Shown here in pieces: positions 22,039 to 60,528 of a stretch of 64,000 bases of DNA. The notes beneath the pieces were generated by a model that ran no database searches, was not told the DNA's origin, and worked only from the letters and a program-made list of their open reading frames with translations. The stretch's first letter is position 1. Every line of letters begins with the position of its first letter. The DNA is from a virus. Its lineage: Duplodnaviria > Caudoviricetes. A program made the translations under genes and the position numbers. The stretch is taken from the IMG/VR virus record IMGVR_UViG_2684622674_000004, positions 30,769-94,768 of that record; one strand, given 5' to 3'.

Positions 22039-22083
22039 CTTCTAAGCCGTAGGTCACAGGTTCGAGCCCTGTAGGGCGTACCA
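22039..22083 (+). pseudogene. 3' half of tRNA-Arg(UCU) = attR of prophage 1
   Basis: CTTCTAA anticodon loop, CAGG-TTCGAGC-CCTG T arm, acceptor strand and CCA; no D arm or 5' strand upstream. Confidence 0.88.
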
Positions 22084-22084
22084 T
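22068..22084 (+). repeat. attL core of element 2
   Basis: Identical to 60512-60528; corresponds to the tRNA 3' end. Confidence 0.9.
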
Positions 22085-22196
22085 CTATACTTCTTCTGCC
22101 GTCTATCTAAGTCTACTAATCCCTTATATAATCAGCCTCTCTGACAATTCCTAGCATCCCAACGTCTACCTACATCCACTGCAATCAACAACAAAG

Positions 22197-22247
22197 TGGG
22201 GGTACTATTGGGGGTATGTCTAGGTTCAATGAAGTGAGATACCCCCA
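22197..22247. promoter_or_regulatory. Putative integrase arm-type sites (TGGGGGTA x2 plus inverted TACCCCCA)
   Basis: Copies at 22197, 22209 and 22240; the same pair recurs at 60430 and 60442 beside attR. Confidence 0.7.
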
Positions 22248-22248
22248 C

Positions 22249-23436
22249 ATGAAATTGAACGCCCGACAAGTCGATACGGCAAAGCCAAAAGAGAAACCTT
22301 ATAAGCTATCTGATGGCGGTGGATTATTTTTGTTAGTCAAAACTACTGGTTCACGTTGTTGGCGGCTGAAATATCGGATCGCCGGTAAAGAAAAATTGCT
22401 AGCATTTGGGGTCTATCCTGATATCACTCTTGCTGAAGCTAGAGCAAAAAGAGATGAGGCTAAGCGTATACTTGCAGTGGGCGGCGACCCTGGTGAAGAA
22501 AAAAAAGTAGAAAAACAAACCAGAAAAGTCAGCATTGATAACACGTTCGAAGCTCTTGCCAGAGAATGGCATGCCTATAAAAGGCCCAATTGGTCCAAAG
22601 GTTATGCTGATGATTTAATGGAGTCGTTCGAAAAAGACATATTCCCTTACGTTGGTAAACGTCCAATTGCCGAAATCAAACCTCTAGAAATTCTCGAAAC
22701 CCTACGCAAGTTAGAAAAGCGCGGCGTCCTCGATAAAATGCGTAAGATCCGTCAGGCATGCAGCCAAACTTTCCGTTATGCAATCGTAACTGGCAGAGCA
22801 GAGAACAATCCAGCAAGTGAACTAGCTGGCGCTCTGGCTGTTCAGAAGCATACACATTACCCCCACCTCTTAGCGAACGAGCTTCCCGCATACCTTAATG
22901 CTCTCAACGCCTATAGCGGCAGTACAGTCACTCGAATAGCAACACGGCTCCTTATGCTTACCGGTGTTCGTACAACTGAACTACGGGCTGCTGAGTGGCT
23001 AGAATTTGACTTGGACAAAGCCGTCTGGGAAGTTCCCACCGCCAGAATGAAAATGCGTCGTCCTCACTTGGTTCCCTTGTCAGAGCAAGTTTTGGCATTA
23101 CTGCGTCAATTACATGAGATTACTGGGCGATTTAAACTGGTATTCCCCGGTCGTAATGACAGCTTAAAGCCAATGAGCGAAGCCAGTATTAATCAGGTCA
23201 TAAAACGTATTGGTTATCATGGTAAAGCCACTGGTCACGGTTTTCGGCACACTATGAGCACCATTTTGCATGAGCAGGGGTTTAATACTGCGTGGATAGA
23301 AACACAGTTGGCCCACGTGGATAAAAACAGCATTCGTGGTACTTACAATCACGCCCAGTATCTGGATGGCCGCAGGGAAATGCTTCAGTGGTATGCCGAC
23401 TATATGGATTGCAGAGAACGTCAGTCGAAAGATTAG
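22249..23436 (+). CDS. int: P4-family tyrosine integrase
   Basis: MKLNARQV..AKPKEKPYKLSDGGGL; catalytic R (TGVR), HGFR, QLAH, YNHA.Y. Confidence 0.96.
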   Translation: MKLNARQVDTAKPKEKPYKLSDGGGLFLLVKTTGSRCWRLKYRIAGKEKLLAFGVYPDITLAEARAKRDEAKRILAVGGDPGEEKKVEKQTRKVSIDNTFEALAREWHAYKRPNWSKGYADDLMESFEKDIFPYVGKRPIAEIKPLEILETLRKLEKRGVLDKMRKIRQACSQTFRYAIVTGRAENNPASELAGALAVQKHTHYPHLLANELPAYLNALNAYSGSTVTRIATRLLMLTGVRTTELRAAEWLEFDLDKAVWEVPTARMKMRRPHLVPLSEQVLALLRQLHEITGRFKLVFPGRNDSLKPMSEASINQVIKRIGYHGKATGHGFRHTMSTILHEQGFNTAWIETQLAHVDKNSIRGTYNHAQYLDGRREMLQWYADYMDCRERQSKD

Positions 23437-23473
23437 TTATTAGGTAAAACTCTTCCGTGAGGAATAAAAAAGG

Positions 23474-23582
23474 GTCGGTTCAGTAGGTTCAGTCGGTTCA
23501 ATATTTTAGTTTGTTGATTTATAGGTTAATTAATTCATTTTTTGAACCGACCCTGAACCGACTTTAGGCCATTTGAACCGAC
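23474..23582. repeat. Iteron cluster 1: three GTCGGTTCA-type and three TGAACCGAC copies around an AT-rich core
   Basis: 9-mers at 23474, 23483, 23492 (reverse) and 23543, 23554, 23574 (forward). Confidence 0.85.
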
Positions 23583-23850
23583 CCTAATCGCGTTATCTCC
23601 CGAAAACCTGGCTTTTTCTCAGCTAAATCACCCTAAATATGCCATTGATCAGCTGAAATTGTTCACCACAGTTTGATGTGAAAATGTGAAGTGATGCTGT
23701 GCATCGATAGGGTGGGTGCTGGACGAGTATACAGTGGTGATTTATAGTAGACCTCAAGAGAATAAGGCTATGCCTAGGCTGATCCCCGAAAACCAGTGCA
23801 CCTCTACTGGCTGGCATAGTTCCCAGACTAATGAGGGTATGAGGTGGTGT

Positions 23851-24732
23851 ATGGGGAAGGCGATAAAAAAAGAACTATCGTGGTTCAATATGAAAAATTA
23901 TGCGTTTTTGCATAACTTAACGTTAATGGACCTGATTAAAGAACTGGAGTGGAGAGATTTTTTATTCCGTCACCTAGATGATGACTCGGATATTTTTGAG
24001 CATGAATATGAAATAAAATATAATAGGATTTTCAGTGGTGACCCTAATATTGAAGTCCTTAGCCAAGAAGAGTTGGAGACTGAGGAGCTAATTCACCACA
24101 TAGGCGAACAGGCCCCTTCTTTAAGAAATATGTATGGAGAGTTACCGAGACTCTCTTCAAGAGAGGGAGTGAGTCCAGTTACATTCACGGAACTATCTAT
24201 GTACTCGTTTGCTGCTATTAAGCAGGGATTTTTTAAAAGAGATGAAGAAAATACCTACATAAAATCTAATGCGATGCTTGCAAGTGTTACTGGTAATATT
24301 GATGCTTGTTTTAGTAATAGTGTTCTAACTTCAATTGATTTGGATGATGCCACTGATGATGAAATTATCACTAGTATGATGCATCTCCTCCCTCTATGGA
24401 GGGCTCAGTTATCTCTCCCTGAAAAAGACCATGTGGCACCAAAAAGAATTGGTGTAAAAACGTTGCAAAAACTAATTTCTAACAGGGTTATTCCCATACT
24501 TGATCTACTTCTCTGGGGCAAAGTGTTCGGTAAAGAAATAACCAATCCTATGATATCTTTACTAGTTTTTGATGATGACCCTAAGGACACTCAAGCGATA
24601 AAAGAGTCTATAAAGCCATTTGCACTAGAGGCAATGGGAGATAAATATACTCGCCTACTTCGCTTGCATATTAATAAAGATAAAGAGCTAGTCTCGACAA
24701 AAATTTCAGAACTAATGCGTAGAGATTTGTAA
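23851..24732 (+). CDS. Satellite-associated protein upstream of alpA (DUF6387-like)
   Basis: WF..KNY, DL...TDDEI...LLP.WR..L, ILDLLLW pattern; int-alpA position; start uncertain. Confidence 0.6.
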   Translation: MGKAIKKELSWFNMKNYAFLHNLTLMDLIKELEWRDFLFRHLDDDSDIFEHEYEIKYNRIFSGDPNIEVLSQEELETEELIHHIGEQAPSLRNMYGELPRLSSREGVSPVTFTELSMYSFAAIKQGFFKRDEENTYIKSNAMLASVTGNIDACFSNSVLTSIDLDDATDDEIITSMMHLLPLWRAQLSLPEKDHVAPKRIGVKTLQKLISNRVIPILDLLLWGKVFGKEITNPMISLLVFDDDPKDTQAIKESIKPFALEAMGDKYTRLLRLHINKDKELVSTKISELMRRDL

Positions 24733-24928
24733 TGAGAAAAAATCTACGAATTTAGATTTAATTAAAAATCGAGGTTTTTTCATGAATGTTTTTTCTAATG
24801 AAAATAAATGAATAAATCTCGAAGTAAATTATTTTTTTAATTTCAGCTTATTATATTTTTTCTTGTGATTAAAGTATCTCCTGTACACCAAGGTATATAA
24901 CCGACCATTACTGAAAACAGGGGTTATT

Positions 24929-25126
24929 ATGTCACAATCACTTATCCGCCTATCAGAAGTCCAACGCCGCACTGGTTATAGTAAGGCTTGGCTTTACCGC
25001 CTTATCAGCCAGAATCGATTTCCTCAATCGATTAAAATCGGCACCCGTTCTATTGCCTTCGTTGAAAGCGAAATTGACGAGTGGATCAACCAACGCATCG
25101 CTGAATCCCGCAAAGAGGTCGCCTAA
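24929..25126 (+). CDS. alpA: AlpA-family regulator/excisionase
   Basis: LIRL.EV.RRTG.SKAW.YRLI...FP..IKIG.R.IAFVESEIDEWI. Confidence 0.93.
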   Translation: MSQSLIRLSEVQRRTGYSKAWLYRLISQNRFPQSIKIGTRSIAFVESEIDEWINQRIAESRKEVA

Positions 25127-25234
25127 TTAAGCATATAGGGTGTGCATTTGTTGCGAGTATTTGCGTTAGGTTTAATCCAACATTTGATTTGCGTCGCTAC
25201 AGACACCAAACGATTTAACGAAGGGTAATTCAAC

Positions 25235-25747
25235 ATGAAAAAATTAAATGCCTTAATTGGCAGCACCCAAACTCAGCCTAAAATAGTACTCAGCGGTATT
25301 AACGTTAATGGCTTGCCTATCGAGTTTGTAGATCAATGGACAGAGTATTGGACTAAGCAGAGTTTCGCTATTTCTGTCCCTGCCAATATTCGTCGCCAGT
25401 ATTATCCCGATGATTCAGCGTTCAGTGTAGCCATGCACAAAGCTGGCTATGTGCCGGTTCGTACTCGGAAGCTGACAGGGAAAGACGGACGATTCTGGTT
25501 GTATCGAGTAACCGGCAAAGATAAGGGGGTTGTCGCACCAGTTCCCGCTAATAGCAAGGCTTGTGGCCTATTTGTGCAGGTGTCACATAAGCCTCGATAT
25601 GGTTATAACGAGGTCGCTTTAGATGGAAAATTACTTCATGTATACGGTGACCACATCCGCTTACTGACTAAAAAGCGGGTTCGTGTGAATGGTAAGCAGG
25701 TTCAGGGCTACACAGCTAAAGGCCTGCGTGTGGAGGTGGTGGCATGA
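25235..25747 (+). CDS. Hypothetical basic protein
   Basis: AAGGG RBS, 170 aa; ATGA overlap with the next ORF. Confidence 0.65.
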   Translation: MKKLNALIGSTQTQPKIVLSGINVNGLPIEFVDQWTEYWTKQSFAISVPANIRRQYYPDDSAFSVAMHKAGYVPVRTRKLTGKDGRFWLYRVTGKDKGVVAPVPANSKACGLFVQVSHKPRYGYNEVALDGKLLHVYGDHIRLLTKKRVRVNGKQVQGYTAKGLRVEVVA

Positions 25748-25775
25748 TGCCCACAACTCAAGCCGCCACCCTGAA

Positions 25776-26490
25776 CCGACTATCTTTGAGCGAGTCGGAT
25801 ACTAACCTGATAATTTCGGGTCAGTTGCAAAAAATTTTGCAGGTGACTTTCGGTTACTTACAAACAGCCCCAGCAATTTCGGTTCTGTTGAAGGGCGGTA
25901 ATAGTAACGCTCAAAATTTAAACTACGAAACTTGCGTAGTTCCTGATGCAAGCAATCTATACCAATCTCCAAAATTTAATGGAGATTGCTACTCAGCCAA
26001 ATATTCGGCTCAGAAAACGCCGCTCAAAAACGGCAATTCACCGAGTTTACCGGCACACCGTAACCTGTTGATTAAACTTAATTGTGCTGAAATGGAATTA
26101 GCTAACTCATTGATTCTTTCGAGGAACGCACAGTCCGTTTGTCGGGAAATCAAAGGCGAACAGTGTTCGGGTTCGGCTGAACATTACCGTTACTCAGGTT
26201 CGTCCGAATATAAACATTGCTTAGGTTCGGTAGTCATTCGAAACGGATGTAACAATGAAAATCAGCAAGTTACAGGCAAAGAAAAGGGAGGCACTGAGAA
26301 TACCGCCCTTTGTGGTTATGGTTTTTTCCATCATGAGGAAAATCAACATGTTGCAGCGCGGCAGGATTTGCAGCTAGTTAGAAACTATTCGCAAAACCCA
26401 CACATGCTAAATGATTACTCAAATCTGAGTCATGAGGAAAATCAACATCTTGCAGAACAGCATGTTCGTACCTGCGAAATTTTAGTAGGT
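25776..26490. repeat. Array of more than 12 different short palindromes, 5 IHF-consensus sites and short direct repeats, inside the open frame 25744-26994
   Basis: e.g. TGCAAAA-AA-TTTTGCA 25826, AACTACG-N7-CGTAGTT 25921, CAATCTCCA-N8-TGGAGATTG 25963, CGAACA-G-TGTTCG 26157, AAAGGGAGG-N11-CCGCCCTTT 26283. Confidence 0.8.
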
Positions 26491-26669
26491 CAGCCCTTTG
26501 GCTCAATTTCTCGTTGCTTAAGTTCCTTTCTAATTATGCGCTTTATCCAAGCAGCTAACGATTCATCGCCGTCCTGTCGCTGGGCTTCTTCCATTAAATC
26601 TCGCAGTTCAGGATCTAGTCGAAATTGGAATGGTGGATTGCCACGTCTTTCATTTTTGTGTGTTGACAC
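26490..26669 (-). CDS. 59-aa ribbon-helix-helix-like regulator (absent from the ORF track)
   Basis: GTG start; MSTHKNERRGNPPFQFRLDPELRDLMEEAQRQDGDESLAAWIKRIIRKELKQREIEPKG*. Confidence 0.75.
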   Translation of the reverse strand: MSTHKNERRGNPPFQFRLDPELRDLMEEAQRQDGDESLAAWIKRIIRKELKQREIEPKG

Positions 26670-26683
26670 GTTAAGTACACCCG

Positions 26684-26717
26684 ATGTAATGTGTTTGTGT
26701 GTGATGACACATTACAT
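26684..26717. promoter_or_regulatory. Perfect 11-bp inverted repeat, candidate operator between the RHH gene and the icd-like gene
   Basis: ATGTAATGTGT-N12-ACACATTACAT. Confidence 0.7.
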
Positions 26718-26805
26718 GCACATGAATGAAAAGGCAACGCCCCGGAGTGCGGAAACACTACCGAGGCGTCTTACCACCAACGATAGATTAGATATCGAGG
26801 CAGCT

Positions 26806-26994
26806 ATGTTAAATCATACCCCAACTCGCTTTAAATTTCTCTTTCTCGCCGTGTGCCGTTCTGACCTGAACGCCAAGCCGCACCGTGAATCAGTCACTGC
26901 CCATTCCGAACAAGACGCCCGCCGCTCCCTGGCTGGTCAGTTTGTACTTTCCTTTGCTGGCCGCATTCCTGCACAGGGGGTATGCAATGCTTAA
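26806..26994 (+). CDS. Icd-like host cell division inhibitor
   Basis: GAGG RBS; F.FLAV.R.D....P.R..V.A.SEQDARR.L...FVLSFAGRIP; forms the C-terminus of the 416-aa ORF. Confidence 0.8.
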   Translation: MLNHTPTRFKFLFLAVCRSDLNAKPHRESVTAHSEQDARRSLAGQFVLSFAGRIPAQGVCNA

Positions 26995-27445
26995 AAAATA
27001 CCGTGTTGAATTTAGCGCATTAGACGCTGCTGGTGGTGCTCTCAAACTGTCATGGTGTGGTGAAGCTGAAAGCCTTGATAAAGCATCTGCCACTGTTCTC
27101 TTGGGGGCTACAGAGCGCCGGTTAAGCAACGTTCAGATCACCAGCATCATGCAGCTCCTTGATGAGGATGATATCTACCCACCTTCATACAAAGAAACTC
27201 AAGCCCTGATTGCTGAACTGATGGGCAGCCATGGTAAGCCAATCCCTGACACCAGCGAGAATGTATCCCGCACTCGGTTACTTCGCGTTAAAGAAGGTCT
27301 GCTTCATTTGTTGACGGTTGTTATTCCTCTGATTGAGAACGAGCAGCAACGATTGCAGGTGTATTGGTGGGCTGAGGCGGTACATAACATCGTGCAGTTT
27401 GAAGAGCTTGACGCGAAAAATGAGCAGGGGGTGTGCAATGTCTAA
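26987..27445 (+). CDS. Hypothetical satellite protein
   Basis: CAGGGGGT RBS; overlaps the icd-like stop. Confidence 0.7.
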   Translation: MLKKYRVEFSALDAAGGALKLSWCGEAESLDKASATVLLGATERRLSNVQITSIMQLLDEDDIYPPSYKETQALIAELMGSHGKPIPDTSENVSRTRLLRVKEGLLHLLTVVIPLIENEQQRLQVYWWAEAVHNIVQFEELDAKNEQGVCNV

Positions 27446-28232
27446 AAAAACTGAGTTAACTCTGGTCGCGGCCAAAGATTTGCAGGTTATTGAGTATCGC
27501 GGTCAGCGTGTGGCAACCACCGAGCAGCTTGCGGCTGGGTATGGTACTGATGTCGAGAATATTCGTCGTAACTTCAACCGCAACAAATCCCGCTTTATTG
27601 AGGGGAAGCATTATTTTCAGATCACTGGCACTGAGCTTGAAAATTTGCGCGGGTCTTTAAGTCCTGCACAAATTTCCAGCAAAACGCGCAGCCTTACTTT
27701 CTGGACTGAGCGCGGCGCTGCCAATCACGCGAAGATGTTAGAAACCGATCAGGCGTGGGAATACTACAACGACCTCACCGAGTTTTATTTTTCTCGACGT
27801 GATGCATTGCCAGCACCTGCAACTATTCCCGACCTCAGTCGCTTGGAAATCCTTCAACTGGCTATCGACTCCGAGCAAGGCCGTTTAGCTGAAAAGCAAC
27901 GCGCCGACAAAGCTATTCGTACCAAAGGACAGATTAGCCGTAAACGTGAAGCCAGCGCCCTCGGCAAACTAAGCGCAGCCACTCGCAAATGTCGTGTACT
28001 GGAAGAACGGCTGGGGGAAAGTACAAAGCATGCCACGGTGAAAGCTGTAGAAAATGTGACTCACCAGAAGTTTGAATGGCGTCCATTGCGCAAATGGTGT
28101 CTTGAAAATGGCTTTAAACCGGAGATGGTGCCTGATCCACAGTATGGCTCTGTAAAATCATGGCCTCGCGAAGCATGGCTGGCAGTACATAGCATCAATC
28201 TGTCCGATGTTATGGGGGTGACTCATGAATAA
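27438..28232 (+). CDS. ORF6N-domain DNA-binding (antirepressor-like) protein
   Basis: IEYRGQRV.TTEQLA.GYG, NF.RNK.RF.EGKHYF, WTERGAANHAKMLETDQAW. Confidence 0.88.
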   Translation: MSKKTELTLVAAKDLQVIEYRGQRVATTEQLAAGYGTDVENIRRNFNRNKSRFIEGKHYFQITGTELENLRGSLSPAQISSKTRSLTFWTERGAANHAKMLETDQAWEYYNDLTEFYFSRRDALPAPATIPDLSRLEILQLAIDSEQGRLAEKQRADKAIRTKGQISRKREASALGKLSAATRKCRVLEERLGESTKHATVKAVENVTHQKFEWRPLRKWCLENGFKPEMVPDPQYGSVKSWPREAWLAVHSINLSDVMGVTHE

Positions 28233-28422
28233 ATTAGCGCCCTGCGAAGTTTCCGATCTTCTCAGTCAAATTGCTTCAATTTTAAAAGTCAGTTCAATGC
28301 TGATTGCTAGTGAGGATGGTAACGACACGGGTTATGAACTTCTTTGGATCGCTCAGGAACGCGCTGAAAAAGCGGCGAAAAATATCGAGGGGGTGAATTA
28401 TGCGCGAACCGCTGCCAAATGA
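28225..28422 (+). CDS. Small hypothetical protein
   Basis: GGGGGTG RBS; coupled to its neighbours. Confidence 0.6.
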   Translation: MNKLAPCEVSDLLSQIASILKVSSMLIASEDGNDTGYELLWIAQERAEKAAKNIEGVNYARTAAK

Positions 28423-28570
28423 TCGTTACAAAGACAGTCATGGCTCATTGATCACTGTTGATAATGTTGCCTTTAATCGCGTTACTTTTAGCCGTGACGG
28501 ATATTCATCGCCCTGCATTATGCCACTGGCGCGGTTCGTTGCTGAATTTACCTTTATCGGGAGAGCATAA
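28400..28570 (+). CDS. DUF4222-like small protein (absent from the ORF track)
   Basis: MREPLPNDRYKDSHG..ITV.....RVTF.RDGY..PC..P..RF..EFT; GAGGGGG RBS. Confidence 0.7.
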   Translation: MREPLPNDRYKDSHGSLITVDNVAFNRVTFSRDGYSSPCIMPLARFVAEFTFIGRA

Positions 28571-28572
28571 CC

Positions 28573-28776
28573 ATGAAAGCCAGTGAATCAGTACCTCTGG
28601 ATATTGCCACGCATAAGGCTGGTCAATTAAATGCTCTCTTGCTGTTGATGTTTGAATCCAATGTTGAATTAGATACTACTGACGAAAAGGAATTACTAGG
28701 TCTAGCACTGGATCTCGCCGGGCCAGTTGCGGTTCATTTGCTTGAGCGGGAGGCCGGACAAAATGGAGCGCCTTGA
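28573..28776 (+). CDS. Small hypothetical protein
   Basis: GGAG RBS, 67 aa. Confidence 0.6.
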   Translation: MKASESVPLDIATHKAGQLNALLLLMFESNVELDTTDEKELLGLALDLAGPVAVHLLEREAGQNGAP

Positions 28777-28868
28777 TATAGCCAGTAGCTAAATGCCCTG
28801 TATTTAATTAGTTAGCATTCCAACATCTAAAAAATAACAGCCGTCAGGCTGGGGACTCGCTCGGCCTG

Positions 28869-29285
28869 ATGAAAGGAAAGGATATATTTATGACGAACCT
28901 GAATCATTCAATCGAATTAAATCGTAAACATATTGCAGTGGCATTTATCGCTTATTGTCAGAAACGAAATAGAGGCGAATCCATTGCCAATGTCATTATT
29001 AATTCTAGAAAGGTTGTTGTTCTGGAAAATTTAACTGAGGCAGCAATTTGTAATTGCCTAATACATTCTCTGGAAGTGCTTTGTTTTCAGGAATTCGGGC
29101 GTGATGACGGTTCTCGGATCCTTGTGGAAACCTACACTCAGATGCTGAGTAAAGATAACAGTAAATTGACACCGCACGGCGTCGAGACAATGACGGAAGT
29201 CATGAAGGCTACGGTCGTAGAGACTTTGGCTAATCCTCATGATAACCGGCATGGGCTGGTATTCAGTCAGGACGGTGCAGCATGA
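28869..29285 (+). CDS. Hypothetical protein preceding the primase
   Basis: ATGA-coupled to the primase; position typical of satellite replication modules. Confidence 0.65.
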   Translation: MKGKDIFMTNLNHSIELNRKHIAVAFIAYCQKRNRGESIANVIINSRKVVVLENLTEAAICNCLIHSLEVLCFQEFGRDDGSRILVETYTQMLSKDNSKLTPHGVETMTEVMKATVVETLANPHDNRHGLVFSQDGAA

Positions 29286-31951: not shown

Positions 31952-32050
31952 GCAGATCGCCTCCATTTGAACTGACCTGAATCGGATTAATCATTCTCTC
32001 TGGCGGGGTATGACACCGAGGCCCTGACAGAGAGTAAAAGAATACGGGGT

Positions 32051-33067: not shown

Positions 33068-33253
33068 ATAATGATATCAACATCGCCTAACGTGCTGCTA
33101 TTGTGGCTGATATTGGTGTTATTATGTCTTTTCTCGTTACGACTTATGGTAATATATCTACATAGCTAATCAATATAAATAGTGAGTCGTATATTAAATA
33201 CGGCTCGCTTTTTTATTGGGTAACGTTCAGAGATTCAGAGGGGTATCCATAAT

Positions 33254-33655: not shown

Positions 33656-33733
33656 AAAGCTATTCGTAACGAGTTTTGCCTATTATTGTGTTAAGAGTGG
33701 TTACTTTGTCACGTAGCTTACACAATCAAAAAG

Positions 33734-33754
33734 ACCTCGCTTCGGCGGGGTTTT
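33734..33754 (+). terminator. tR'-like terminator
   Basis: ACCTCGC-TTCG-GCGGGGT-TTT about 80 nt after Q. Confidence 0.8.
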
Positions 33755-33790
33755 GTCGTTTATGGAGGGCTGAAAAATGCTGTAGCTAAA

Positions 33791-36157: not shown

Positions 36158-36230
36158 ATGTAGTTGATAACACTATATATTTACGGTGCATTGGGTAGAA
36201 TGTAACCATTAACGTATATAGGGGGATGAA

Positions 36231-48762: not shown

Positions 48763-48813
48763 TTGATAACCTACAGATCCACTTCGGTGGGTTTTTTTTC
48801 GCCCGGAGAATGT

Positions 48814-51754: not shown

Positions 51755-51757
51755 CCG

Positions 51758-52171
51758 ATGATCCTGATGGTGAATGGTCAACAACAATCAGCCTCTACGC
51801 CCACCGATCCCCTAACACGTGCGGTGATTATCTCGCTGTTTACTTGGCGGCGGGCTGATCCGGATGATGATGCTGAGCGGCCCATGGGGTGGTGGGGTGA
51901 TACTTATCCCACAATACAAAATGACCGTATCGGCTCCCGACTCTATTTACTCCAGCGCACCACCCTGACCCATAACACGATCGAGCTAGCAAGAGGCTAC
52001 TTAGCGCAGGCACTCGCTTGGTTAAAAGACGACGGTGTAGTTTCACGAATCACCATCAATGTGCAGCGACGCGGTACCGAAATACTGACTGCTGAAATAA
52101 CGCTGTACCGTAACGATGGCAGTTCTCAGTTAATTACCTTCGATGATTTATGGAGTGCACTCAATGGCTGA
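51758..52171 (+). CDS. Mu gp46-like baseplate protein
   Basis: AVIISLFTWRRA, GWWGD, GSRL.LL.R, AL.WL..DG. Confidence 0.9.
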   Translation: MILMVNGQQQSASTPTDPLTRAVIISLFTWRRADPDDDAERPMGWWGDTYPTIQNDRIGSRLYLLQRTTLTHNTIELARGYLAQALAWLKDDGVVSRITINVQRRGTEILTAEITLYRNDGSSQLITFDDLWSALNG

Positions 52172-53222
52172 TAGCGGATTTAACCGCCCAACACTTCCCC
52201 AGCTTATTTCCCAAATCCGCAGTGACTTGAATTCCCGTTTCCAAACTGATGCTGTTCTTCGCCGTACCGACACCGAGGTTTACAGCCGGGTACATGCGGC
52301 GGCGGTGCACACGGTTTACGGCTACATAGATTATCTGGCCCGCAACCTGTTACCGGATCAGTGCGACGAGGATTGGTTAGCACGCCACGGCAATATGAAG
52401 CGCTGCCAGCGCAAAGAGCCATCAACTGCCACGGGCTTTGTACGCTGGGAAGGGGTCACCAACGGCATTGAAGTGCCTGCCGGCAGAGTGATTCAGCGTG
52501 ATGATTTGCAGGAGTACACCACCACCGCAGCGGCGACCTCTATTGCGGGTGTTCTGCGGGTGCCAGTGATCTGCTCAGTCGTTGGCACACTGGGAAATAC
52601 TGACGATGGTATCAGCATGGTACTGACTCAACCGATTAATGGCCTGCCCTCGTCCGCCGCCGCAGATGGCATTGAGGGCGGCACGGATGTGGAGCCAGTG
52701 GAGGAGTGGCGGGCGCGGATCATTGAGCGCTGGTATTACTCCCCGCAAGGCGGCGCTGATGGCGACTATATTATCTGGGCCAAAGAGGTACCCGGCGTTA
52801 CCCGCGCATGGACTTACCGCCACTGGATGGGAACCGGCACGGTCGGGGTGATGGTGGCTAACAGCAACCTTGAAAATCCAGTGCCGGATAATGCGGTAGT
52901 CACCGCCGCGCGTGACCACATCTTACTGCTGGCTCCGGTGGCGGGGGCCAGCCTCTACACCTTCCCACCAGTGGCGAAGATAGTACCGTTCCATGTTCGC
53001 CTTACGCCAGACACACCGGAGGTTCGCTATGCAGTTATCGCCGAGCTGCGTGCCATGTTTCTGCGTGATGGGGTGCCGGGTGGGGTACTGGATCACTCTC
53101 GTATTAACGAAGCGATCAGCATCGCCACCGGGGAGTATAAGCATATTCTGGTGAGTCCGACCGATGATGTTCAACTGGCCGCAACTGAGCTGCCCATTGT
53201 GGGAGAACTGACGTGGACCTAA
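52164..53222 (+). CDS. Baseplate wedge J (Mu gp47-like)
   Basis: RPTL..L, GG.D.E....R.R, GG...[13 protein letters not shown]. Confidence 0.92.
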
Positions 53223-53794
53223 CCGACAGCTACAGCCAACTACTAACAAACCTCCTGCCGCGCGGTCCCGCGTGGGAGGGGGATGATCCCCTACTGTTGG
53301 GGCTTGCACCGTCCTACTCTCGCGCCCATCAGCGCGGAGATAGCCTGATGCTAGAGGTTGATCCGCGCACCACCACTGAGCTTATCGATCGCTACGAGCA
53401 GATAACGGGCCTGCCGGACTCATGCGCACCGCCCGGCGTACAGACCTTGGCCCAGCGGCAGCAGCGGCTGGATGCAAAAATTAATGTCACGGGCGGGATT
53501 AGCAAGGCGTTCTATCTGGCACAACTGGCGGCACTGGGCTATCCGAATGCCACTATCACCCAGTTTGAAAGTGATATTTTCCGCTGTACGTCTACCTGTA
53601 TTGATTCGCTTTATTCAGAAGAGTGGCGCTACTGGTGGCAGGTCAATATGCCGAATGTCACCCAGATAACCGACATGACCTGCGCCTCAGTGTGCACCGC
53701 CAGCCTGAGAACGTGGGGCGACACCACTGCCGAATGCGTCATTAACAAACTTTGCCCTTCGCACACCTACGTGACTTTCTTATACCCGGAGTAA
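53213..53794 (+). CDS. YmfQ/Mu gp48-like baseplate protein
   Basis: LLP.GPAW, E.DP.TT.ELI.R.E...GLPD.C, EC.I.K..PSHT. Confidence 0.9.
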
Positions 53795-53800
53795 CCCTTT

Positions 53801-54868
53801 ATGCATCGTATTGATACCCCAACCGCCCAAGTGGATAAATTTGGCGCGGGTAAGAACGGCTTTACCCGTGGTAACCCACAAACGGGTGTACCGGCTACCG
53901 CGCTGGATGATGATTATTTTGATTCTATTCAAGAGGAGATCGCTGGGGTTGTTGAATCCACTGGTGTGGCGCTTGATAAATCCAACAGAACTCAGTTATT
54001 GACCGCACTGAAAAAACTATTTTTACGGACGGGTAATAACTTTTCTGAAATTGCGGCGGCTGGTTCTGCTGCGGTGGCTGCTGCTCTCGCAAATCTGGGA
54101 TTAAGTGACGTGGCCCATCTTCCACAATTAACAGGTATTATTGGCACATCACGCAATGCAAAAATGAGTGTTACAGCGGCCTCGGCAACGGCTACTTTCA
54201 CCGCTGATGAATTAATCGTGCAAGCTGCGCTGGGAGGACGCCAGTACAAGCTGGCTAGCTTCAACAAGACAATTAACCTTGCCACTACTGGCGCGGGTGG
54301 GATGGATACGGGTGCCGTGCCAGCGAACGGATTTGTTGCGCTGTATGCGATTTATAACCCAACAACTCAAGTGTCGGCCTTGTTAGCAGTTAATGCTACG
54401 TCAGTGCTGGTTCCAGAGGTGTATTCCGGGGCTAATATGCCGTCAGGCTACACGGCCTCAGCTCTGGTTAGTATATGGAAAACTGCGAGCAGCCAGCTTG
54501 TTATTGGCTATCAGATGGACAGAAAGATCACCCTTACCAGTGCTATTGCAATTAACGGGAATACTCAACAGGCGGCATATACTGCAATTCCCTTGACTCC
54601 AACGGTCCCAGTTAATGCGAAAACAGTATCCGGGACTAGGGGGGTAGCATCGACCACGGCAGGGGCTGCTATAAAAAACTACGTGGCTTCAAGTGCTTCT
54701 GGATTATCAGAACAACCAATGAGTGGAGGAACTGCCGCCGCAAACCTTGATATGCACACTGCATTTCTCGACCTACCAATTATTACGCCGCAAACTATTT
54801 ATTTCCTAGCAACAGCTAGTGCAGGAACTATGACGATGAGTGTTGTTATAAGTAGTTATACCTTTTAA
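53801..54868 (+). CDS. Tail fibre protein
   Basis: MHRIDTPTAQ.DKFG.GKNGFT.G.P.TG..AT N-terminus, QEEI, PSGYTASAL. Confidence 0.88.
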   Translation: MHRIDTPTAQVDKFGAGKNGFTRGNPQTGVPATALDDDYFDSIQEEIAGVVESTGVALDKSNRTQLLTALKKLFLRTGNNFSEIAAAGSAAVAAALANLGLSDVAHLPQLTGIIGTSRNAKMSVTAASATATFTADELIVQAALGGRQYKLASFNKTINLATTGAGGMDTGAVPANGFVALYAIYNPTTQVSALLAVNATSVLVPEVYSGANMPSGYTASALVSIWKTASSQLVIGYQMDRKITLTSAIAINGNTQQAAYTAIPLTPTVPVNAKTVSGTRGVASTTAGAAIKNYVASSASGLSEQPMSGGTAAANLDMHTAFLDLPIITPQTIYFLATASAGTMTMSVVISSYTF

Positions 54869-55110
54869 TGAGATTTACGGAGGTTTACGTGGACGAATAT
54901 TATGTTCAGTTTACAGACGATACACAGACAGTAATTGGATTATATTTTTGCTGCCCACAAGACCCAAATGTATATCCTAATTTGGGTACCGTATTTGGAA
55001 ATGACCCAAGGTACATCGCTTATTATGATTCACTGCCAGCGTTTGCTCGCTATGGGATGCCGGTTCCAATATACCCAACAATGACGGTTGATCTTGGTGA
55101 GAAAAAGTAA
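54868..55110 (+). CDS. Small tail-fibre-associated protein
   Basis: VQF.D.T...I..YF..PQDP...PNLG.V...DPRY; coupled to the fibre gene. Confidence 0.7.
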   Translation: MRFTEVYVDEYYVQFTDDTQTVIGLYFCCPQDPNVYPNLGTVFGNDPRYIAYYDSLPAFARYGMPVPIYPTMTVDLGEKK

Positions 55111-55426
55111 GGCATAAAAAATAGGGAGTGTTGGGTTGTAGTCTGTGCATGTGACGGAAGGGCAAGAGTGCCTATTGTGGTGATATATTGGTGAATGGGC
55201 ATATGAGGGGCAAAAAACTACCGCAAAGTAACTCAAAGCAACATGCTCATTGAATCAGTTTGCAGTAATACATTGCTAAAACCTTAGATGCAACTTAAAT
55301 CACCGTAACATATTGATTTATGTTGGCACATACCTAAAGAGCAAGACTCGGCAAAGTTTTATTGCTAATTTATTTAGGTTTTTATAAATAGTTCCGAGAT
55401 GGTTAATTTCATAATTTACGAATAGG

Positions 55427-56038
55427 ATGCTTACCATGATGATTTACGTGCAACTTTCTGATGGAACCCCAAAAAGATTATTTGGCATATTTGGTGGGCC
55501 TCAGCCTGAGGGTTGGTTCAATGGTTATGTAGAATTAGATATTGACCCTAATACAGCATATGCACTTAATGACTATTATAATCCAGCCGATAATAAATTT
55601 TATGTAGACACCGATTTTATACATTTATCTGGATGGATTGACCCGGTAAATATATATAACATTGCACTTGACGGACTAAACTCAAATGGCGCGATTGCTT
55701 TCGGTGCTGTTTTAACACCAACTTCTGATTTTGGTGCTCAGACGTGGTGGTGCCAGTGCGAAGAAGCAAACAAGTACCATGCAGATAATACTTTTTCAGC
55801 CCCATTGCTTACAGCAATGGTTTCTGCTTCCAATGGTGAATTAACTTTGAATGATTTAGTTCAAAGTATCCTTACGAGCGAAGCGGATTGGAAAAATGCG
55901 GCAGGTAACATTGCATGGCAAATTTATAATAAAAAATTAGCCCTACAATATTTACGCGATGAGGTCATTGCAGGAACAAAAACAATTGAGGATATCCAGA
56001 ATTTTGATTGTAGCATCATCATTCCACAGTTGAATTGA
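55427..56038 (+). CDS. Hypothetical protein, possibly fibre-assembly-like
   Basis: AT-rich 203-aa ORF; TW..Q.EEA..Y.AD....APLL pattern. Confidence 0.55.
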   Translation: MLTMMIYVQLSDGTPKRLFGIFGGPQPEGWFNGYVELDIDPNTAYALNDYYNPADNKFYVDTDFIHLSGWIDPVNIYNIALDGLNSNGAIAFGAVLTPTSDFGAQTWWCQCEEANKYHADNTFSAPLLTAMVSASNGELTLNDLVQSILTSEADWKNAAGNIAWQIYNKKLALQYLRDEVIAGTKTIEDIQNFDCSIIIPQLN

Positions 56039-56136: not shown

Positions 56137-59100
56137 TTAGAAGTTGTATTTAACCCCTAACATCACCGCAGTATCACTGTAGCCTTTGTTGCCGATCTGC
56201 TGTCCAACATTACCCCAGAGATTGACTTGCTTGTTGATCTGACCTTCGACACCCACTTTCACTTCCGCAATGTTCGCCGCACCGTCTTGCTTCACGGTCA
56301 CGCCATCCATATTGGTACCAAAGTCTTTGGTGTTATGAACCCAGTTAGCTTCAACAAACGGCTGGAACACACGGTCCTTACCTTTATCCTGATCCGCGTA
56401 ACCATTTATAAAGGCTTTCACACCCAGACGGGTCTGGATATTGCCATCACCTTCACCTGATACATTGGTGCCGTTGGCTTCTTTATGCTCGTCCGCTTTC
56501 ACACCCATCCAGGTAACCTGTGCTTTAGGCTGGATAAAGTAGGTGGCGTTTTTAGCCGCGTTCTCGCCCACTTTAAAGGTATAGCCACTCTCAACAGATG
56601 CCGTCACCCCTTTGGATTTGTACTCTTCGCTCGCTAAATCCTGGCCTTCAACCGTGTTGTCGAACCAGCTGTATTGTGCCCAGCTGTCCACATACAGGCC
56701 CGATTTATCGGCATCGTTAGCATACCAGGTACCGTAGACCCCGGTGCTGTAACCATCAGTGGTGCCTTTGGCGTTATAACCGGACACTTGTGACACCGTG
56801 GTGTTCTTGCTGTTGCCGTAACCGGCCATCACGCCCAGGTGGAAACGGTCCATGCCATTATTACTCCACTGAGCAATATCGCCACCCAGTTGCATCACAT
56901 AGCGGTTCGCCTGTGTACTCAACTGACCACTGGTATCACGGGAGCGGTTATGGCCGCCTTCGTTACGCAGCCACATGCTGGTAACTTTCTTCTCGCCGGT
57001 CAGCGCGTCGATATATTGGGTTTCACCCAGACGATCGTGCAGACGCGTCACAAACATAGTGTTGGCTGCGGCCAGGTTCGCGGTGTAGCTGCCGGCTTCA
57101 GGGCGTTTAGTTTCCTCGCCTGGACCCGTCGGGTTTTCCGGGGCGACCGGATTTTCTGGATCAACCGGTAAATTGCTCAAGCTGGTCAAATACCAATTAC
57201 TGGCATTGGTTCCTACCCCGCGAGCCAGAGAGTAATCATACGCACCGGCAACAATACGTCCCTGCTTAACAAACTCACCGTTCGACAGTCCATTCACCTT
57301 AATCAACTCAATACCGTTTAATGTCGTCGCGCCACTGCCACCCAAGTTAGTTACAGCCACATGAGTGGTGCCAGCAGTATTACCATTAACGACTAATTTA
57401 TCAGTAACTGAAGCATCATTATTGAGTGCTGAGTTAAAGTTGAGCAGACCGTCATTGCCGATGTAATCACCGGATACCGTTAGAATCGTACCTGGTGCAC
57501 CGTTAAGGCTCACAGTACCGCTATTACTTAGACTGTTCAGTGTCTGGTCGAAACCGGCTAAATCCAGTTCTCCCGCAGTCTCGACAATATATTCAGAAGC
57601 TGTACTGAAGCTGCTTGCCGCACCAGCCTTTAAGGTGCCAGCATTAACCGTTGTCGTACCACTATAGGTATTTACGCCATTTAATACCGTCATACCACTG
57701 TAAACTGCCACTTTACCACTGCCAGCAATGGCAGAATTAAACTGATAATCAGTATCAATATGGTTAAAGACAATTGAGCTATCACCGCTACCTAAGGTGA
57801 TAAGTGGTGTATTAATATAACCGGCTGATGAAGCAGTATAATTAGCTGCGCTACCAATATTCAGTACTCCGGTTGAAGTTGCATCTTTAGCAATGATTAA
57901 ATTATCGGTTTGAACAGTCCCACTGTTATTAATAGTCAGTGAGGCGTTACCGCCAAACTCCCCAAAACTAATATCACCTGTATTAACCCAATTGGAATTA
58001 ACACCAGTGACCAAAACGTCACCTTTTGAGCCAGCGGCATAGCCGACATAGCTACCAGAACTACTGAGATTCCCGCCATCGGAGACGACGACAGAGCCAT
58101 TTCCATTGTTACCTATAACCAAGCTGTTAGAGTTTTGCCAAGAAGAATCTGTACCTGAGATATTTACTTGGCCAGTGGCATCTTTTCCTGCACCAACATA
58201 ACCAAAACTATCAGTTACAACACCACCATTAGTGATATTTAGAGTACTATTAGAACCTACTGATGCGTAAAATGAACCAATTTGCAGGGTCTCGGCATTA
58301 TCCCAACGAGAGTCGGTGCCGGTAATTTCTACCACTCCGATAGAGTCATTAATATTCCCGCTTTGACTGGCTACTACACCACCATCAGAAACAACCATGG
58401 TGGCAGGGCCATTTGTTCCTATATCAAGCAATGTACCCACTTGCCAGCGGGAACCTGCACCGCTCACTTCTACATAACCGGTTGAAGTAGTTCCTGCCGC
58501 AACGCTTGCTTTCGTTGCCGTGGTAACAATGCCGCCATTGGTGATTTTAAGACTGCCATCACCTTCATGGCCGATGAACATACGATTACCGGCATTCCAG
58601 ATTGAGCCTAGACCTGTGACTTCAACGCTACCGGTTGAACCTGGGCGATACGCAATATCAGCATTGTTTTGGTTAGTGACTACAGCACCATCGGTAATTC
58701 GCATCATGCCATTACTATCATTTTCGCCACCAATGCGTAACTCACCGCCGTTGGTTAATTGTGAACCAGTTCCACTGACTTCAAGATAACCAACAGCCCC
58801 AACACCAAAACCAACATGTGTCGCGTTAACAGGGTTATTTACAACTCCACCATCCGATATCTGTAATGTGCCGTTACCGTTATAACCAACAAAGAGCACT
58901 CCGTTATTTATCCACTTAGAGTCAGATCCAGTAATAACTACCTCACCGGTAGCTGTAGAACTATAGCCAATATAGCTCCATAGCCCAGCGGCTACATTTC
59001 CGCTGGTCAACGTTCCACCATTTCCGCTGTTCAACGGTCCACCATTGAAAATCTTCATAGCACCAAATGACGTATTACCAACAATTATTACCCCTGGAAT

Positions 59101-59226
59101 ATCCCAATCAGGATCGTCAGGTATTACATCACCTGTAAAACCGATGTCAGCATAAGAAGTTGTGGTGTTAATCGCAGATATAATAGTTAAGGCGATACAA
59201 GATAATTTGTAGTTAAATAATTTCAT
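56137..59226 (-). CDS. Type Va autotransporter (AIDA/pertactin-like) with repetitive passenger
   Basis: Signal peptide; ~50-aa G.G.L.I..GG.V...G.V.V.G..S.W repeats; TDKL.V.G, AGAYDY.L; Pro-rich linker; barrel ending VKYNF. Confidence 0.93.
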   Translation of the reverse strand: MKLFNYKLSCIALTIISAINTTTSYADIGFTGDVIPDDPDWDIPGVIIVGNTSFGAMKIFNGGPLNSGNGGTLTSGNVAAGLWSYIGYSSTATGEVVITGSDSKWINNGVLFVGYNGNGTLQISDGGVVNNPVNATHVGFGVGAVGYLEVSGTGSQLTNGGELRIGGENDSNGMMRITDGAVVTNQNNADIAYRPGSTGSVEVTGLGSIWNAGNRMFIGHEGDGSLKITNGGIVTTATKASVAAGTTSTGYVEVSGAGSRWQVGTLLDIGTNGPATMVVSDGGVVASQSGNINDSIGVVEITGTDSRWDNAETLQIGSFYASVGSNSTLNITNGGVVTDSFGYVGAGKDATGQVNISGTDSSWQNSNSLVIGNNGNGSVVVSDGGNLSSSGSYVGYAAGSKGDVLVTGVNSNWVNTGDISFGEFGGNASLTINNSGTVQTDNLIIAKDATSTGVLNIGSAANYTASSAGYINTPLITLGSGDSSIVFNHIDTDYQFNSAIAGSGKVAVYSGMTVLNGVNTYSGTTTVNAGTLKAGAASSFSTASEYIVETAGELDLAGFDQTLNSLSNSGTVSLNGAPGTILTVSGDYIGNDGLLNFNSALNNDASVTDKLVVNGNTAGTTHVAVTNLGGSGATTLNGIELIKVNGLSNGEFVKQGRIVAGAYDYSLARGVGTNASNWYLTSLSNLPVDPENPVAPENPTGPGEETKRPEAGSYTANLAAANTMFVTRLHDRLGETQYIDALTGEKKVTSMWLRNEGGHNRSRDTSGQLSTQANRYVMQLGGDIAQWSNNGMDRFHLGVMAGYGNSKNTTVSQVSGYNAKGTTDGYSTGVYGTWYANDADKSGLYVDSWAQYSWFDNTVEGQDLASEEYKSKGVTASVESGYTFKVGENAAKNATYFIQPKAQVTWMGVKADEHKEANGTNVSGEGDGNIQTRLGVKAFINGYADQDKGKDRVFQPFVEANWVHNTKDFGTNMDGVTVKQDGAANIAEVKVGVEGQINKQVNLWGNVGQQIGNKGYSDTAVMLGVKYNF

Positions 59227-59687
59227 TTTAAGTAATAATCCTGATGTTAATATGATAAAAAGAATGAATTTATTAATATGAATTCTCGTTTACTTTTTAA
59301 AATACACATGAGCATCAAACTTATTACTACAACGATAATTCATGAACTCACAATAACGTGATCTAGGTCAAAAAATAATCAGACACCAGGGTTTGTTTTG
59401 TAGGAATTTTCCTGTTTTTCGTTTAAGTATCTAAATTTCCGCATCCAAATAATCAGTTTAAAATAATATTTATATTAATAATTGTATTAAGTTTTCATCA
59501 ATGTGGTTGGCATCATAGAACAGATTCATTGCTCCACAAATACTGGGGATTTATCAGGGCAGCATGGCCGGATGTCACCGGCCGTATGAAAAGTGCTATA
59601 GCTGAAATCAGTAATCTGTTTACCTTTGTTTTAACTATTCAGTCTCCCTCTAATTGTGCATCATTCTATACTCAGCAATTTCCCTAT

Positions 59688-59939
59688 CTAAGTGGGCTTT
59701 CTCTCACGACGTATTACTTTTGGCATTTTTTGTATCCATTCATCAACCAATTCACGGTTGTAGAAGCAAGCCGCTGTTTCGTGAGGGATTCCATTCCCTG
59801 AGACGTGTTTGTACTCGCGCCCCTCCATCCACGAAGTATCTCTAGCATATTTAATGGTATTTTTCTTTAAGCCAGTTATAGCCATCAATACTGATTCCGA
59901 AACCCAACGTGACGGTACTAACTGAATAATGTTATCCAT
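59688..59939 (-). CDS. Putative excisionase (DUF1233-like)
   Basis: IQL.P..WV.E..L...TGL....I..AR..SWMEGREY.H..., YN...VD.WI. Confidence 0.8.
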   Translation of the reverse strand: MDNIIQLVPSRWVSESVLMAITGLKKNTIKYARDTSWMEGREYKHVSGNGIPHETAACFYNRELVDEWIQKMPKVIRRERKPT

Positions 59940-60131
59940 AACTATGTTGCCTCTTAATTTTCTCTGACAAACGATTTTTGTGAACATCTTTTATAGTTTA
60001 CACATAGAGGATATTAATAAAGTTGGTATTGGGTTCTTTTTAGTCAATTAGATGAGTAATAAACAGTAACACATTGAAGATTAACAGTTATTTTTGATTA
60101 TCTTCAGGTTGAAGGAAGTTCAACAAGCTAT

Positions 60132-60244
60132 TGAACCGACTTTATAGAGAGATGAACCTACCGTGGGTCGGTTCAATTTAAAATTAATTTATCTTATATA
60201 TCAAATAAATGCGACCGTGAACCGACTGAACCTACCGAACCGAC
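60132..60244. repeat. Iteron cluster 2 (TGAACCGAC/TGAACCTAC)
   Basis: 9-mers at 60132, 60153, 60167 (reverse), 60218, 60227, 60236 around an AT-rich core. Confidence 0.85.
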
Positions 60245-60511
60245 CACTTTCTGGTTATATATAGAGAAATTTTATTTGCGATTATGAATCCATAATCAAC
60301 TGTTAAATTGATGGTCAAATAATAACCAGTAAAGTGAAGTGCGATGATATTAAATCATTTTGATAGCAAATATTGTCTTTCACGATTCTTGGTAGTTTCT
60401 TCGCACAGGTTTGGGGAAGGAAAATTATTTGGGGGTATCGTTGGGGGTATCTTTAAAATTGAACTTGGTTAATATCTTTATTTAACAGTGTATTGATAGT
60501 TTAATTTTACT

Positions 60512-60528
60512 CCTGTAGGGCGTACCAT
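60512..60528 (+). repeat. attR core of element 2
   Basis: CCTGTAGGGCGTACCAT, identical to 22068-22084; TGGGGGTA arm-type pair at 60430 and 60442. Confidence 0.9.

Follow-up and report, generated by a model that had tools for sequence, protein, structure and literature searches.

The DNA examined here is a 64,000-nucleotide stretch (hereafter the window) that forms the right two thirds of a 94,768-base IMG/VR provirus record, IMGVR_UViG_2684622674_000004, which contains no N; its DNA matches are to Yersinia phages and Yersiniaceae genomes, which suggests a host resembling Yersinia. Positions 22068-60528 hold an element of 38,461 bp in which early genes like those of a phage-inducible chromosomal island (PICI) stand beside late genes for lysis, head and contractile tail, and which is probably an integrated temperate phage. 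Genes were assigned to families by searches of Pfam, PHROGs and NCBIfam. On the plus strand, a near-continuous series of genes, all in the same orientation, runs from the integrase to the tail fibre (22216-56038 on the map of open reading frames, ORFs). These assignments bear out the gene content listed in a preliminary description of this DNA, from a P4-type integrase to the fibre, and add to it an int-alpA RNA motif, DUF6387 and DUF4222 genes, an autotransporter and a DUF1233 excisionase-like gene. The ends of the element carry the following attachment (att) features.

22039-22083, plus strand: 3' part of a tRNA-Arg(UCU)-like sequence, anticodon loop to CCA (compared with the intact tRNA at attL of the relative G005)
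22068-22084, no strand: attL core, a 17-bp direct repeat (exact-repeat search)
22197-22216, plus strand: doubled arm motif TGGGGGTA-N4-TGGGGGTA, P' arm, 130.5 bp from the core centre (motif search)
60218-60244, plus strand: three tandem TGAACCGAC units, P arm, possible arm-type sites
60430-60449, plus strand: doubled arm motif TGGGGGTA-N4-TGGGGGTA, P arm, 80.5 bp from the core centre (motif search)
60512-60528, no strand: attR core, the same 17-bp direct repeat (exact-repeat search)

The 17-mer CCTGTAGGGCGTACCAT occurs exactly twice in the window, at 22068-22084 and 60512-60528, with no third copy there at up to three mismatches (0.13 expected; 1 of 100 shuffles reached 2). It consists of the final 16 bases of the tRNA-Arg(UCU)-like sequence and one extra base. 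The sequence 5' of the tRNA fragment is degenerate, and the whole tRNA is not preserved in the window: ARAGORN reports no complete tRNA gene in the window or in the whole 94.8-kb record, and Rfam none in 21800-22200. In the relative G005, the same core is the end of an intact tRNA-Arg(UCU), immediately 5' of a 99%-identical integrase, and around 49150-49330 of that record sequences resembling the left and right flanks of the window are contiguous. The doubled motif has exactly two co-oriented matches in the 64 kb (0 expected), which in the rebuilt attP flank the core centre, one lying 80.5 bp upstream of it and the other 130.5 bp downstream. In G005 this core and the doubled-motif pair recur about 44.5 kb apart, and a 15-kb Tatumella island (L044) has the doubled motif at both ends. 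The preliminary description had proposed a single att-bounded unit and had named internal att sites, as left by two nested elements, as the sign to the contrary. Within the element there is neither an internal core (at up to three mismatches) nor, by the motif search, an internal arm motif, so the objection from nested elements does not apply. The element is one att-bounded unit, and its insertion site is the 3' terminus of a tRNA-Arg(UCU) sequence.

The arm sites have a published parallel in the attP of helper-embedded PICIs, which is described as a doubled 8-mer with a 4-base spacer at 81+/-2 and 132+/-2 bp (PMC10111431). The arm geometry is alike and the motif sequence unlike; the authors themselves did not find that 8-mer sequence in other PICIs. 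The comparison suggests that arm-site geometry is shared throughout this integrase group. At the attR of G005 (~45682), the tRNA-end copy stops after CCTGTAGGGC, leaving about 27 bases fewer than window positions 60512-60560; this shortening resembles the tRNA-fragment "damage" in attR that is reported for PICIs and not for prophages (PMC10111431).

The early region, up to the hairpin that precedes the antiterminator gene, is made up as follows.

22216-23436, plus strand: P4-type tyrosine integrase, facing inward (PF13356, Arm-DNA-bind_3; PF22022, Phage_int_M; PF00589, Phage_integrase)
23716-24732, plus strand: DUF6387 gene, probably starting downstream of 23716; cargo that separates int from alpA
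23767-23837, plus strand: int-alpA RNA motif (RF02996, 42.4 bits against a gathering score of 35.8, E 4.9e-06)
24929-25126, plus strand: AlpA, excisionase/activator family (PF05930, E 1.2e-18)
25235-28232, plus strand: variable "Bro zone" with ORFs of 170, 416 and about 153-186 amino acids (aa) and an ORF6N protein
27333-28232, plus strand: ORF6N antirepressor-family protein, within the Bro zone
28225-29285, plus strand: small replication-zone genes of 65 aa, DUF4222 (28400-28570), 67 aa and 138 aa (phrog_1737)
29282-31951, plus strand: primase-helicase of 889 aa with Zn-ribbon primase, Toprim and DUF927 domains (phrog_1139 over its full length, E 5e-146)
32051-33067, plus strand: 338-aa protein with an N-terminal helix-turn-helix (phrog_6204)
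33181-33209, plus strand: terminator-like hairpin upstream of Q

All early genes lie on one strand, and int faces inward. As the preliminary description had stated for cI/cro/N, O/P and recombination genes, XRE/S24 repressor, cI, Cro, N, O/P and recombinase families have no match among the scanned co-oriented plus-strand ORFs from int to Q. The integrase is at best 48% identical to those of deposited phages (726 records, all below 60%), whereas in loci fetched through the primase and showing no hallmark late gene within 10 kb it is 65-86% identical in pairwise comparison. AlpA behaves in the same way, at 44% identity or less in phage-named records, where a 63% match proved to be a Salmonella genomic contig held in the phage collection, versus 73-85% in the loci fetched through the primase. 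Classical PICIs of the EcCICFT073 type and the Escherichia coli thrW island share with the element a co-oriented array of int, a small gene, AlpA, antirepressor, Icd-like, DUF4222 and DUF927 primase genes beside a tRNA. In the thrW island this shared order, with an AlpA-like helix-turn-helix gene in the place of AlpA, spans 17 kb with no virion genes. Unlike the element, these islands are 11-18 kb long, end in ProQ/PerC, defence or redirection genes, and encode neither lysis nor virion proteins. In its gene content, gene order and orientation the early region is of satellite type, and it is nearer to related loci, some of them islands of 12-18.5 kb, than to any deposited phage. With P4 itself the element shares a P4-type integrase at a tRNA, an AlpA/Vis-family regulator and a primase N-terminal domain, 35% identical to that of P4 alpha, but the helicase part of the element is DUF927, not the P4 alpha C-terminus. 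Pfam families for P4 psu-delta-sid (Psu, Sid, Delta/Ogr) and epsilon have no match in the ORFs scanned.

Downstream of this region lie the genes of a complete virion, followed by two genes on the opposite strand.

33254-33655, plus strand: late antiterminator Q (PF06530, E 4.5e-45)
33731-33754, plus strand: terminator-like hairpin, tR'-like, about 75 bp after Q
34343-36157, plus strand: lysis cassette of two holins, GH19 endolysin, Rz and embedded Rz1
36600-39347, plus strand: HNH endonuclease, probable cos near 37068, terS (P27/Terminase_4 type) and terL
39465-44423, plus strand: portal, S78 protease, HK97-type capsid, head-tail connectors and tail terminator
44633-56038, plus strand: contractile tail, with sheath, tube, chaperone, tape measure, DNA-circulation protein, Mu gp43-48-type baseplate, fibre and two downstream ORFs
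56137-59226, minus strand: autotransporter of 1029 aa, cargo, with pertactin-like passenger, autochaperone and beta-barrel domains
59688-59987, minus strand: DUF1233 putative excisionase, inside the right end and facing attR

The late region comprises about 35 ORFs, its tape measure belonging to the PhageMin_Tail family, and by alignment it reads as a mosaic of known phages. The nearest isolate to the late module is Yersinia phage YeP1, like SfV a lambdoid myovirus. Nucleotide identity with this phage is 94% over 34996-36137 (endolysin to spanin), 96% over the block from HNH to the end of the YeP1 linear genome, and 91% over an 11.3-kb block from connector to fibre (42666-53955). Because the YeP1 genome end aligns to 37068, a cos site is probable near that position. 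Between these blocks, terL is 65% identical at the nucleotide level and 60% as protein, and the portal protein 29%; the terS-capsid block is about 73% identical at the nucleotide level to SfV. Six late genes compared with YeP1 show 272 synonymous and 53 non-synonymous codon differences and no breaks, a pattern that fits continued selection for the function of the late genes. SfV and YeP1 resemble the element both in the late region and in genome size (37.1 and 39.5 kb). Yet the early region of YeP1 is ordinary lambdoid, with a LexA-like repressor, replication protein O, RusA, another Q and an outward int, none of which the element has. Q followed by a lysis cassette and co-oriented morphogenesis genes is the lambdoid arrangement, but the element lacks the divergent cI/cro-type immunity, N, O/P-type replication and outward int that also belong to it.

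We then asked how this combination is distributed among relatives, using a primase search from which 80 of 123 matched IMG/VR loci were kept, together with 59 genome loci. Among those kept, 12 IMG/VR loci have a primase at least 93% identical, and of these 11 retain Q (90-93% identical) and 10 the 338-aa gene. In each of five full provirus records, G001-G005, the DNA from alpA to Q is 90-95% identical to that of the element. The homology breaks off between 33645 and 33761, either at the Q stop or about 100 bp past it, by the terminator at 33731-33754. The TerL of the element is matched in none of the five: in G001-G003 the terminase is of a distant lambda type and the contractile tail is another one, with a sheath 44-46% identical, and G004-G005 have a Fels-1-like TerL (69%), portal and protease-capsid. 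One part of the G001 late region has matches to terminases of Serratia and Citrobacter phages and to lysis genes of Yersinia phages; the distal half (L142:6030-20000) gave no megablast match to the phage collection. The autotransporter end is common to G001 and the element, this gene being 90% identical in spite of the different late module, and the G001 integrase is different (60%); every module is therefore exchangeable. Q and its terminator sit at the border where relatives switch late modules. Further away, Serratia and metagenome relatives keep the same int-AlpA-Bro-primase-late layout, and the Serratia locus L039 and the metagenome locus L086 have AlpA and Bro-N genes in the order found in the element. 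In L039, G007 and G008, at a primase identity of 68-81%, TerL is present; G007 and G008 also have head genes, and G008 a tape-measure gene. From these comparisons the element is best placed in a lineage, with the same early genes and different late sets, rather than taken as a one-off.

These relatives change the account given in the preliminary description, which had suggested that a satellite became autonomous by capturing an SfV-like late module. Its premises stand, namely a satellite-type early region with the identities given above, a single unit, and a nearest late-region isolate whose own early region is ordinary lambdoid. A single recent capture, however, does not agree with an early block plus Q that is 90-95% identical in five records with two other late modules. 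The description had further held that early genes belonging to a phage lineage normally built in this way would speak against its reading. The relatives nearly supply such a lineage, but one for which the phage collection searched has no named or isolated member.

The same comparisons bear on whether the element could be an immobile relic, in which a PICI and a lambdoid prophage stood in tandem at tRNA-Arg and a deletion across the middle att removed the integrase and early genes of the prophage. The site is a tandem hot spot: a gap of 185 bp separates the element from a lambda-like prophage on its left, and one of 75 bp from a truncated lambda-type integrase on its right. The right end also contains an excisionase gene of lambdoid type (DUF1233), and deletion derivatives (L077 and L072) exist among the relatives. 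However, the border falls exactly after Q and its terminator, and the same early block with Q stands on two other late modules in five relatives, which random deletion would not repeat. The P-arm motif, matching that of the P' arm, lies at the far right end beyond the tail genes and at the published spacing (PMC10111431), and G005 has the whole arrangement again beside an intact tRNA. The late genes, moreover, show mostly synonymous divergence and no breaks. We regard such a dead fusion as very improbable.

The primase tree places these elements next to islands. Fifteen of its 116 rows come from late-gene-bearing elements and form one clade with a support of 98. The sister clade includes L003, a 16.1-kb island with 18-bp repeat ends that encodes capsid, protease, portal, HNH, terS and terL. 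The other main clade has 95 rows, none of which shows a hallmark late gene within 10 kb by the 26-protein panel; ten of them are repeat-bounded, at 12.3-18.5 kb. One history compatible with this pattern has the anatomy of a temperate phage reached from a small satellite, which would have become autonomous again once lambdoid phages had supplied it with Q and with genes for lysis, head and tail, most recently the SfV/YeP1-like set. The nesting of the 15-row phage-sized clade within the family, the intermediate grade represented by L003, and the repeat-bounded small islands would agree with it, as would the lysis, HNH and tail blocks 91-96% identical to a lambdoid phage, which imply recent exchange, and the published capture of late genes by PICIs (PMC10111431; 10.1101/2022.09.08.507074). 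But the nesting depends on a midpoint root, not an inferred one, so gain and loss are indistinguishable on this tree, and a passage from phage to satellite fits it equally. For most of the 95 rows, satellite status is judged from a lack of matches to a small panel, and later swaps of late modules are uninformative on origin. The order of primase, 338-aa gene and Q also occurs in true lambdoid phages, Fels-1 and phi467, which have a P4-like primase and both carry cI/cro. This history is possible, though we hold it to be doubtful.

A satellite-sized Yersinia record of 12.4 kb in IMG/VR, L076, has homologues of the DUF4222 (84% identical) and 67-aa (88%) genes. It encodes AlpA and an AntA protein, and the panel detected no hallmark late gene in it. 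At 9982-10713 it encodes a protein with a match to PF18352, a phage-protein N-terminal domain family, and a GpV Apex motif, which hints that this protein might interfere with the tail tip of a helper.

One possible control feature of alpA is shared across these size classes. Just upstream of the gene, a hairpin at 24870-24931 pairs the alpA ribosome-binding site, and the site forms the 3' arm of such a hairpin in 44 of 45 distinct alpA leaders, that of the element included (single-sequence minimum-energy folds, a count with no proper chance control). The arms differ in sequence with the pairing kept, as in CTCGTAA/TTACGAG, CTCCTGTAG/CTACAGGAG and CTCCTATAG/CTATAGGAG; in the window they are CTCCTGT/ACAGGGG, paired through one G-U pair. 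RNAalifold gave no consensus on 20 leaders, in whose MAFFT alignment the hairpin variants stood out of register. The hairpin is separate from the Rfam int-alpA RNA at 23767-23837. It is a possible translational gate on the master switch, common to satellites and phage-sized elements.

Among published systems, the closest is the elongated PICI. Gram-negative PICIs are described as having four ordered zones, and prophages as lacking AlpA beside int and having an outward int (PMC10111431). Tommasini, Mageeney & Williams (2023, NAR Genom Bioinform, PMC10111431) describe 11 elongated genotypes of more than 22 kb with up to 17 captured late genes, and favour capture over fusion; their text names a 45-kb Cedecea case and others from Serratia. 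These share with the element the order Integration (inward int and AlpA), Bro, Replication and Late, an att site at a tRNA or gene end with a conserved arm architecture, and a length above 22 kb. Their Late zones likewise hold clusters taken from lambdoid prophages, some of which can be recognised in the nucleotide sequence, as the 11.3-kb YeP1-like block can here. The element differs in having some 35 late-region ORFs with Q, a full lysis cassette and a contractile tail, and in a late module that is swapped among close relatives; the authors classify theirs as PICIs. Capsid-forming PICIs are reported to have heads but no tails, and head modules anciently diverged from those of phages (10.1101/2022.09.08.507074). 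Their prototype, EcCIEDL933 (Alqurainy et al.), has a similar int-alpA-primase left part and its own HNH-terS-terL, portal, protease, HK97 capsid and connectors. Capsid-forming PICIs, however, are about 15 kb long, without tails or holins, and need a helper for tails and induction; the element has both tail and holin genes in 38.5 kb, and unlike those capsid modules its lysis and tail blocks are 91-96% identical to a phage. More generally, a Gram-negative PICI in the sense of Fillol-Salom 2018 and SatelliteFinder relies on a helper for induction and transfer and has int, alpA and a primase/replicase co-oriented beside a specific att site, a gene arrangement that the element shows. PICIs are also expected to lack holins and tails and to measure roughly 10-20 kb, whereas the element has two holins, sheath, tube, tape measure and baseplate in 38,461 bp. 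In SatelliteFinder, holins and tails are forbidden components (PMC10085698). The literature searched yielded no published complete virion-encoding element of this design; the supplements of PMC10111431, which lay outside that search, may hold some.

The resemblance to elongated PICIs raises the alternative that the element is one of them, structurally self-sufficient but with an AlpA that responds only to a helper phage, resident in the same cell or infecting it, as in EcCICFT073 and EcCIEDL933. It would then build its own virions while depending on the induction signal of another phage. The four-zone order and the inward int are the features that separate PICIs from prophages, and elements above 22 kb with up to 17 late genes have been classed as PICIs (PMC10111431). 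The alpA of Gram-negative PICIs is reported to be helper-activated and needed for induction (10.1101/2022.09.08.507074), and the hairpin over the alpA ribosome-binding site is common to satellite-sized relatives. Scans of the element found neither a repressor of its own nor an SOS site, and a lambda-like prophage adjoins it on the left and a second prophage remnant lies on the right. Against this, the element has Q and a full, conserved complement of genes for lysis, packaging, head and tail, so that no structural borrowing is needed, and its own Q would suffice for late expression. Definitions of the SatelliteFinder type exclude elements with holins or tails (PMC10085698), and no result identifies a helper. 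Dependence on a helper for induction seems rather unlikely to us, and the source of the signal that turns on AlpA, the element itself or another phage, is what decides between this alternative and an autonomous temperate phage.

On balance, we favour the reading that the element is one integrated temperate phage, which joins an early third of Gram-negative PICI design to a complete lambdoid-style late region and belongs to a Yersiniaceae lineage that exchanges late modules. That it makes infectious particles without a helper is somewhat more likely than the opposite. Under this temperate-phage reading, the cycle would begin with the production of AlpA, whose translation would normally be blocked by the hairpin over its ribosome-binding site. 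AlpA would drive excision with Int and activate the rightward early operon, and the primase-helicase would replicate the excised circle. Read-through or activation past the terminator at 33181 would then yield Q, which would let transcripts from a promoter just 3' of the Q gene continue beyond the 33731 terminator and so cover the genes for lysis, packaging, head and tail. HNH, TerS and TerL would cut and package DNA at cos near 37068 into an HK97-type head, to be joined to the contractile tail. Lysogeny would be held without a cI-type repressor, by the same logic as in PICIs, and the lineage would keep its early module with Q while swapping late modules with co-resident lambdoid phages. Two descriptions fit the element equally well: it closes the elongated-PICI series at the end where virions are complete, or it represents a lineage of temperate phages whose early module is of PICI type.

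Several points weigh against an autonomous phage. No phage record covers at least 80% of the primase (42 records) or, at blastn sensitivity, more than 12% of the 7.9-kb early DNA (175 records). Because there is no isolate or virion record and no deposited phage covers the early region, the cycle is drawn from gene order alone. The LexA box CTGT-N8-ACAG is absent from the window, where 0.75 would be expected, which makes its absence weak evidence, and no P4-type immunity RNA (C4, isrK) was detected in 22000-37200 at E values up to 1; given that neither these nor a repressor was found, the trigger could be a helper. Copies do decay, since two of the 12 close relatives are deletion forms, L077 with a truncated primase joined to a sheath gene and L072 without two genes. 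The comparisons have bounds as well: the ends of IMG/VR proviruses are predictions, most relatives were viewed over 10 kb on each side of the primase, their late genes were recognised with a panel of 26 proteins, and the primase tree was built with FastTree and rooted at its midpoint.

Satellites and phages are usually treated as cleanly separate. A widely used detector rejects candidates with holins or tails (PMC10085698), and one study used AlpA versus tail genes as class signatures, AlpA having matched 1 of 169 prophage models and lambda tail markers none of its satellite or fis-island sets (PMC10111431). Neither rule holds for the element, its 12 close relatives and the relatives from Serratia and metagenomes. 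That PICIs capture late genes, and that elongated PICIs exist, has already been published. What the present data add is one primase tree on which elements encoding complete virions stand together with a capsid-encoding island and with islands that lack structural genes, and which so bears on the origin of Gram-negative satellites. It is tempting, though the odds are against it, to see the Yersiniaceae elements as free-living tailed phages that run on a satellite operating system (no protein repressor, a hairpin-gated AlpA, a P4-type integrase with arm sites spaced as in PICIs). Within one primase family they would then stand at the phage-grade end of a series of extant forms that begins with PICIs and passes through capsid-forming PICIs to the complete virus. 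If that were true, the phage-satellite boundary would be crossed by simple exchange of late modules at the Q junction, and the origin of Gram-negative satellites could be tested through extant intermediates that satellite finders discard by rule. The lineage is also a tractable case for lysogeny without a cI-type repressor. With its cargo, a large autotransporter, and a tRNA-Arg hot spot shared with other prophages, it may move host genes with or without a helper.

The hot spot itself holds parts of other elements. Window positions 1-21883 contain the late half of a lambda-like siphovirus prophage, which ends 185 bp before attL and encodes a 1124-aa tape measure, a 1066-aa gpJ-type tip protein, a DUF6453 protein, a fibre and a gpK-type assembly protein. 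This prophage seems to have integrated in the same tRNA-Arg further upstream, between the anticodon loop and the 3' end, and its integration apparently left the tRNA fragment that now lies beside the element. On the right, the truncated lambda-type integrase is an 83-aa C-terminal fragment on the minus strand (60603-60854), 75 bp beyond attR, and the last ORF of the window (63344-64000) resembles a phage-type Ser/Thr phosphatase. Both seem to be left over from a third element that used this tRNA site.

Some parts of the element itself are variable. The DUF6387 gene is missing in most close relatives, and the DUF1233 gene was not found in the close relatives examined; a 52% homologue of the latter lies 4.6 kb downstream of the primase in the Enterobacter locus L021. 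The content of the Bro zone also varies among relatives. Its Icd-like domain is solely the C-terminal 47 residues of the 416-aa ORF, which further contains two 33-base direct repeats, 99 bases apart (26331-26462). The 170-aa and ~153-aa ORFs of the zone had no Pfam, PHROGs or NCBIfam match and no usable protein-atlas hit. Phage homologues of the 338-aa protein occur in Fels-1, phi467, ENT39118 and vB_EcoS-611R1; an assignment of this gene as the YdfU-family gene of YeP1 was ruled out, with no tblastn match to YeP1. On a Symbiopectobacterium contig, L055 and L056 carry the N-terminal part of a primase and a Q homologue (43%), followed by capsid, protease, portal, terS and terL, so that a Q-driven head operon seems, from gene order, to be present there too.

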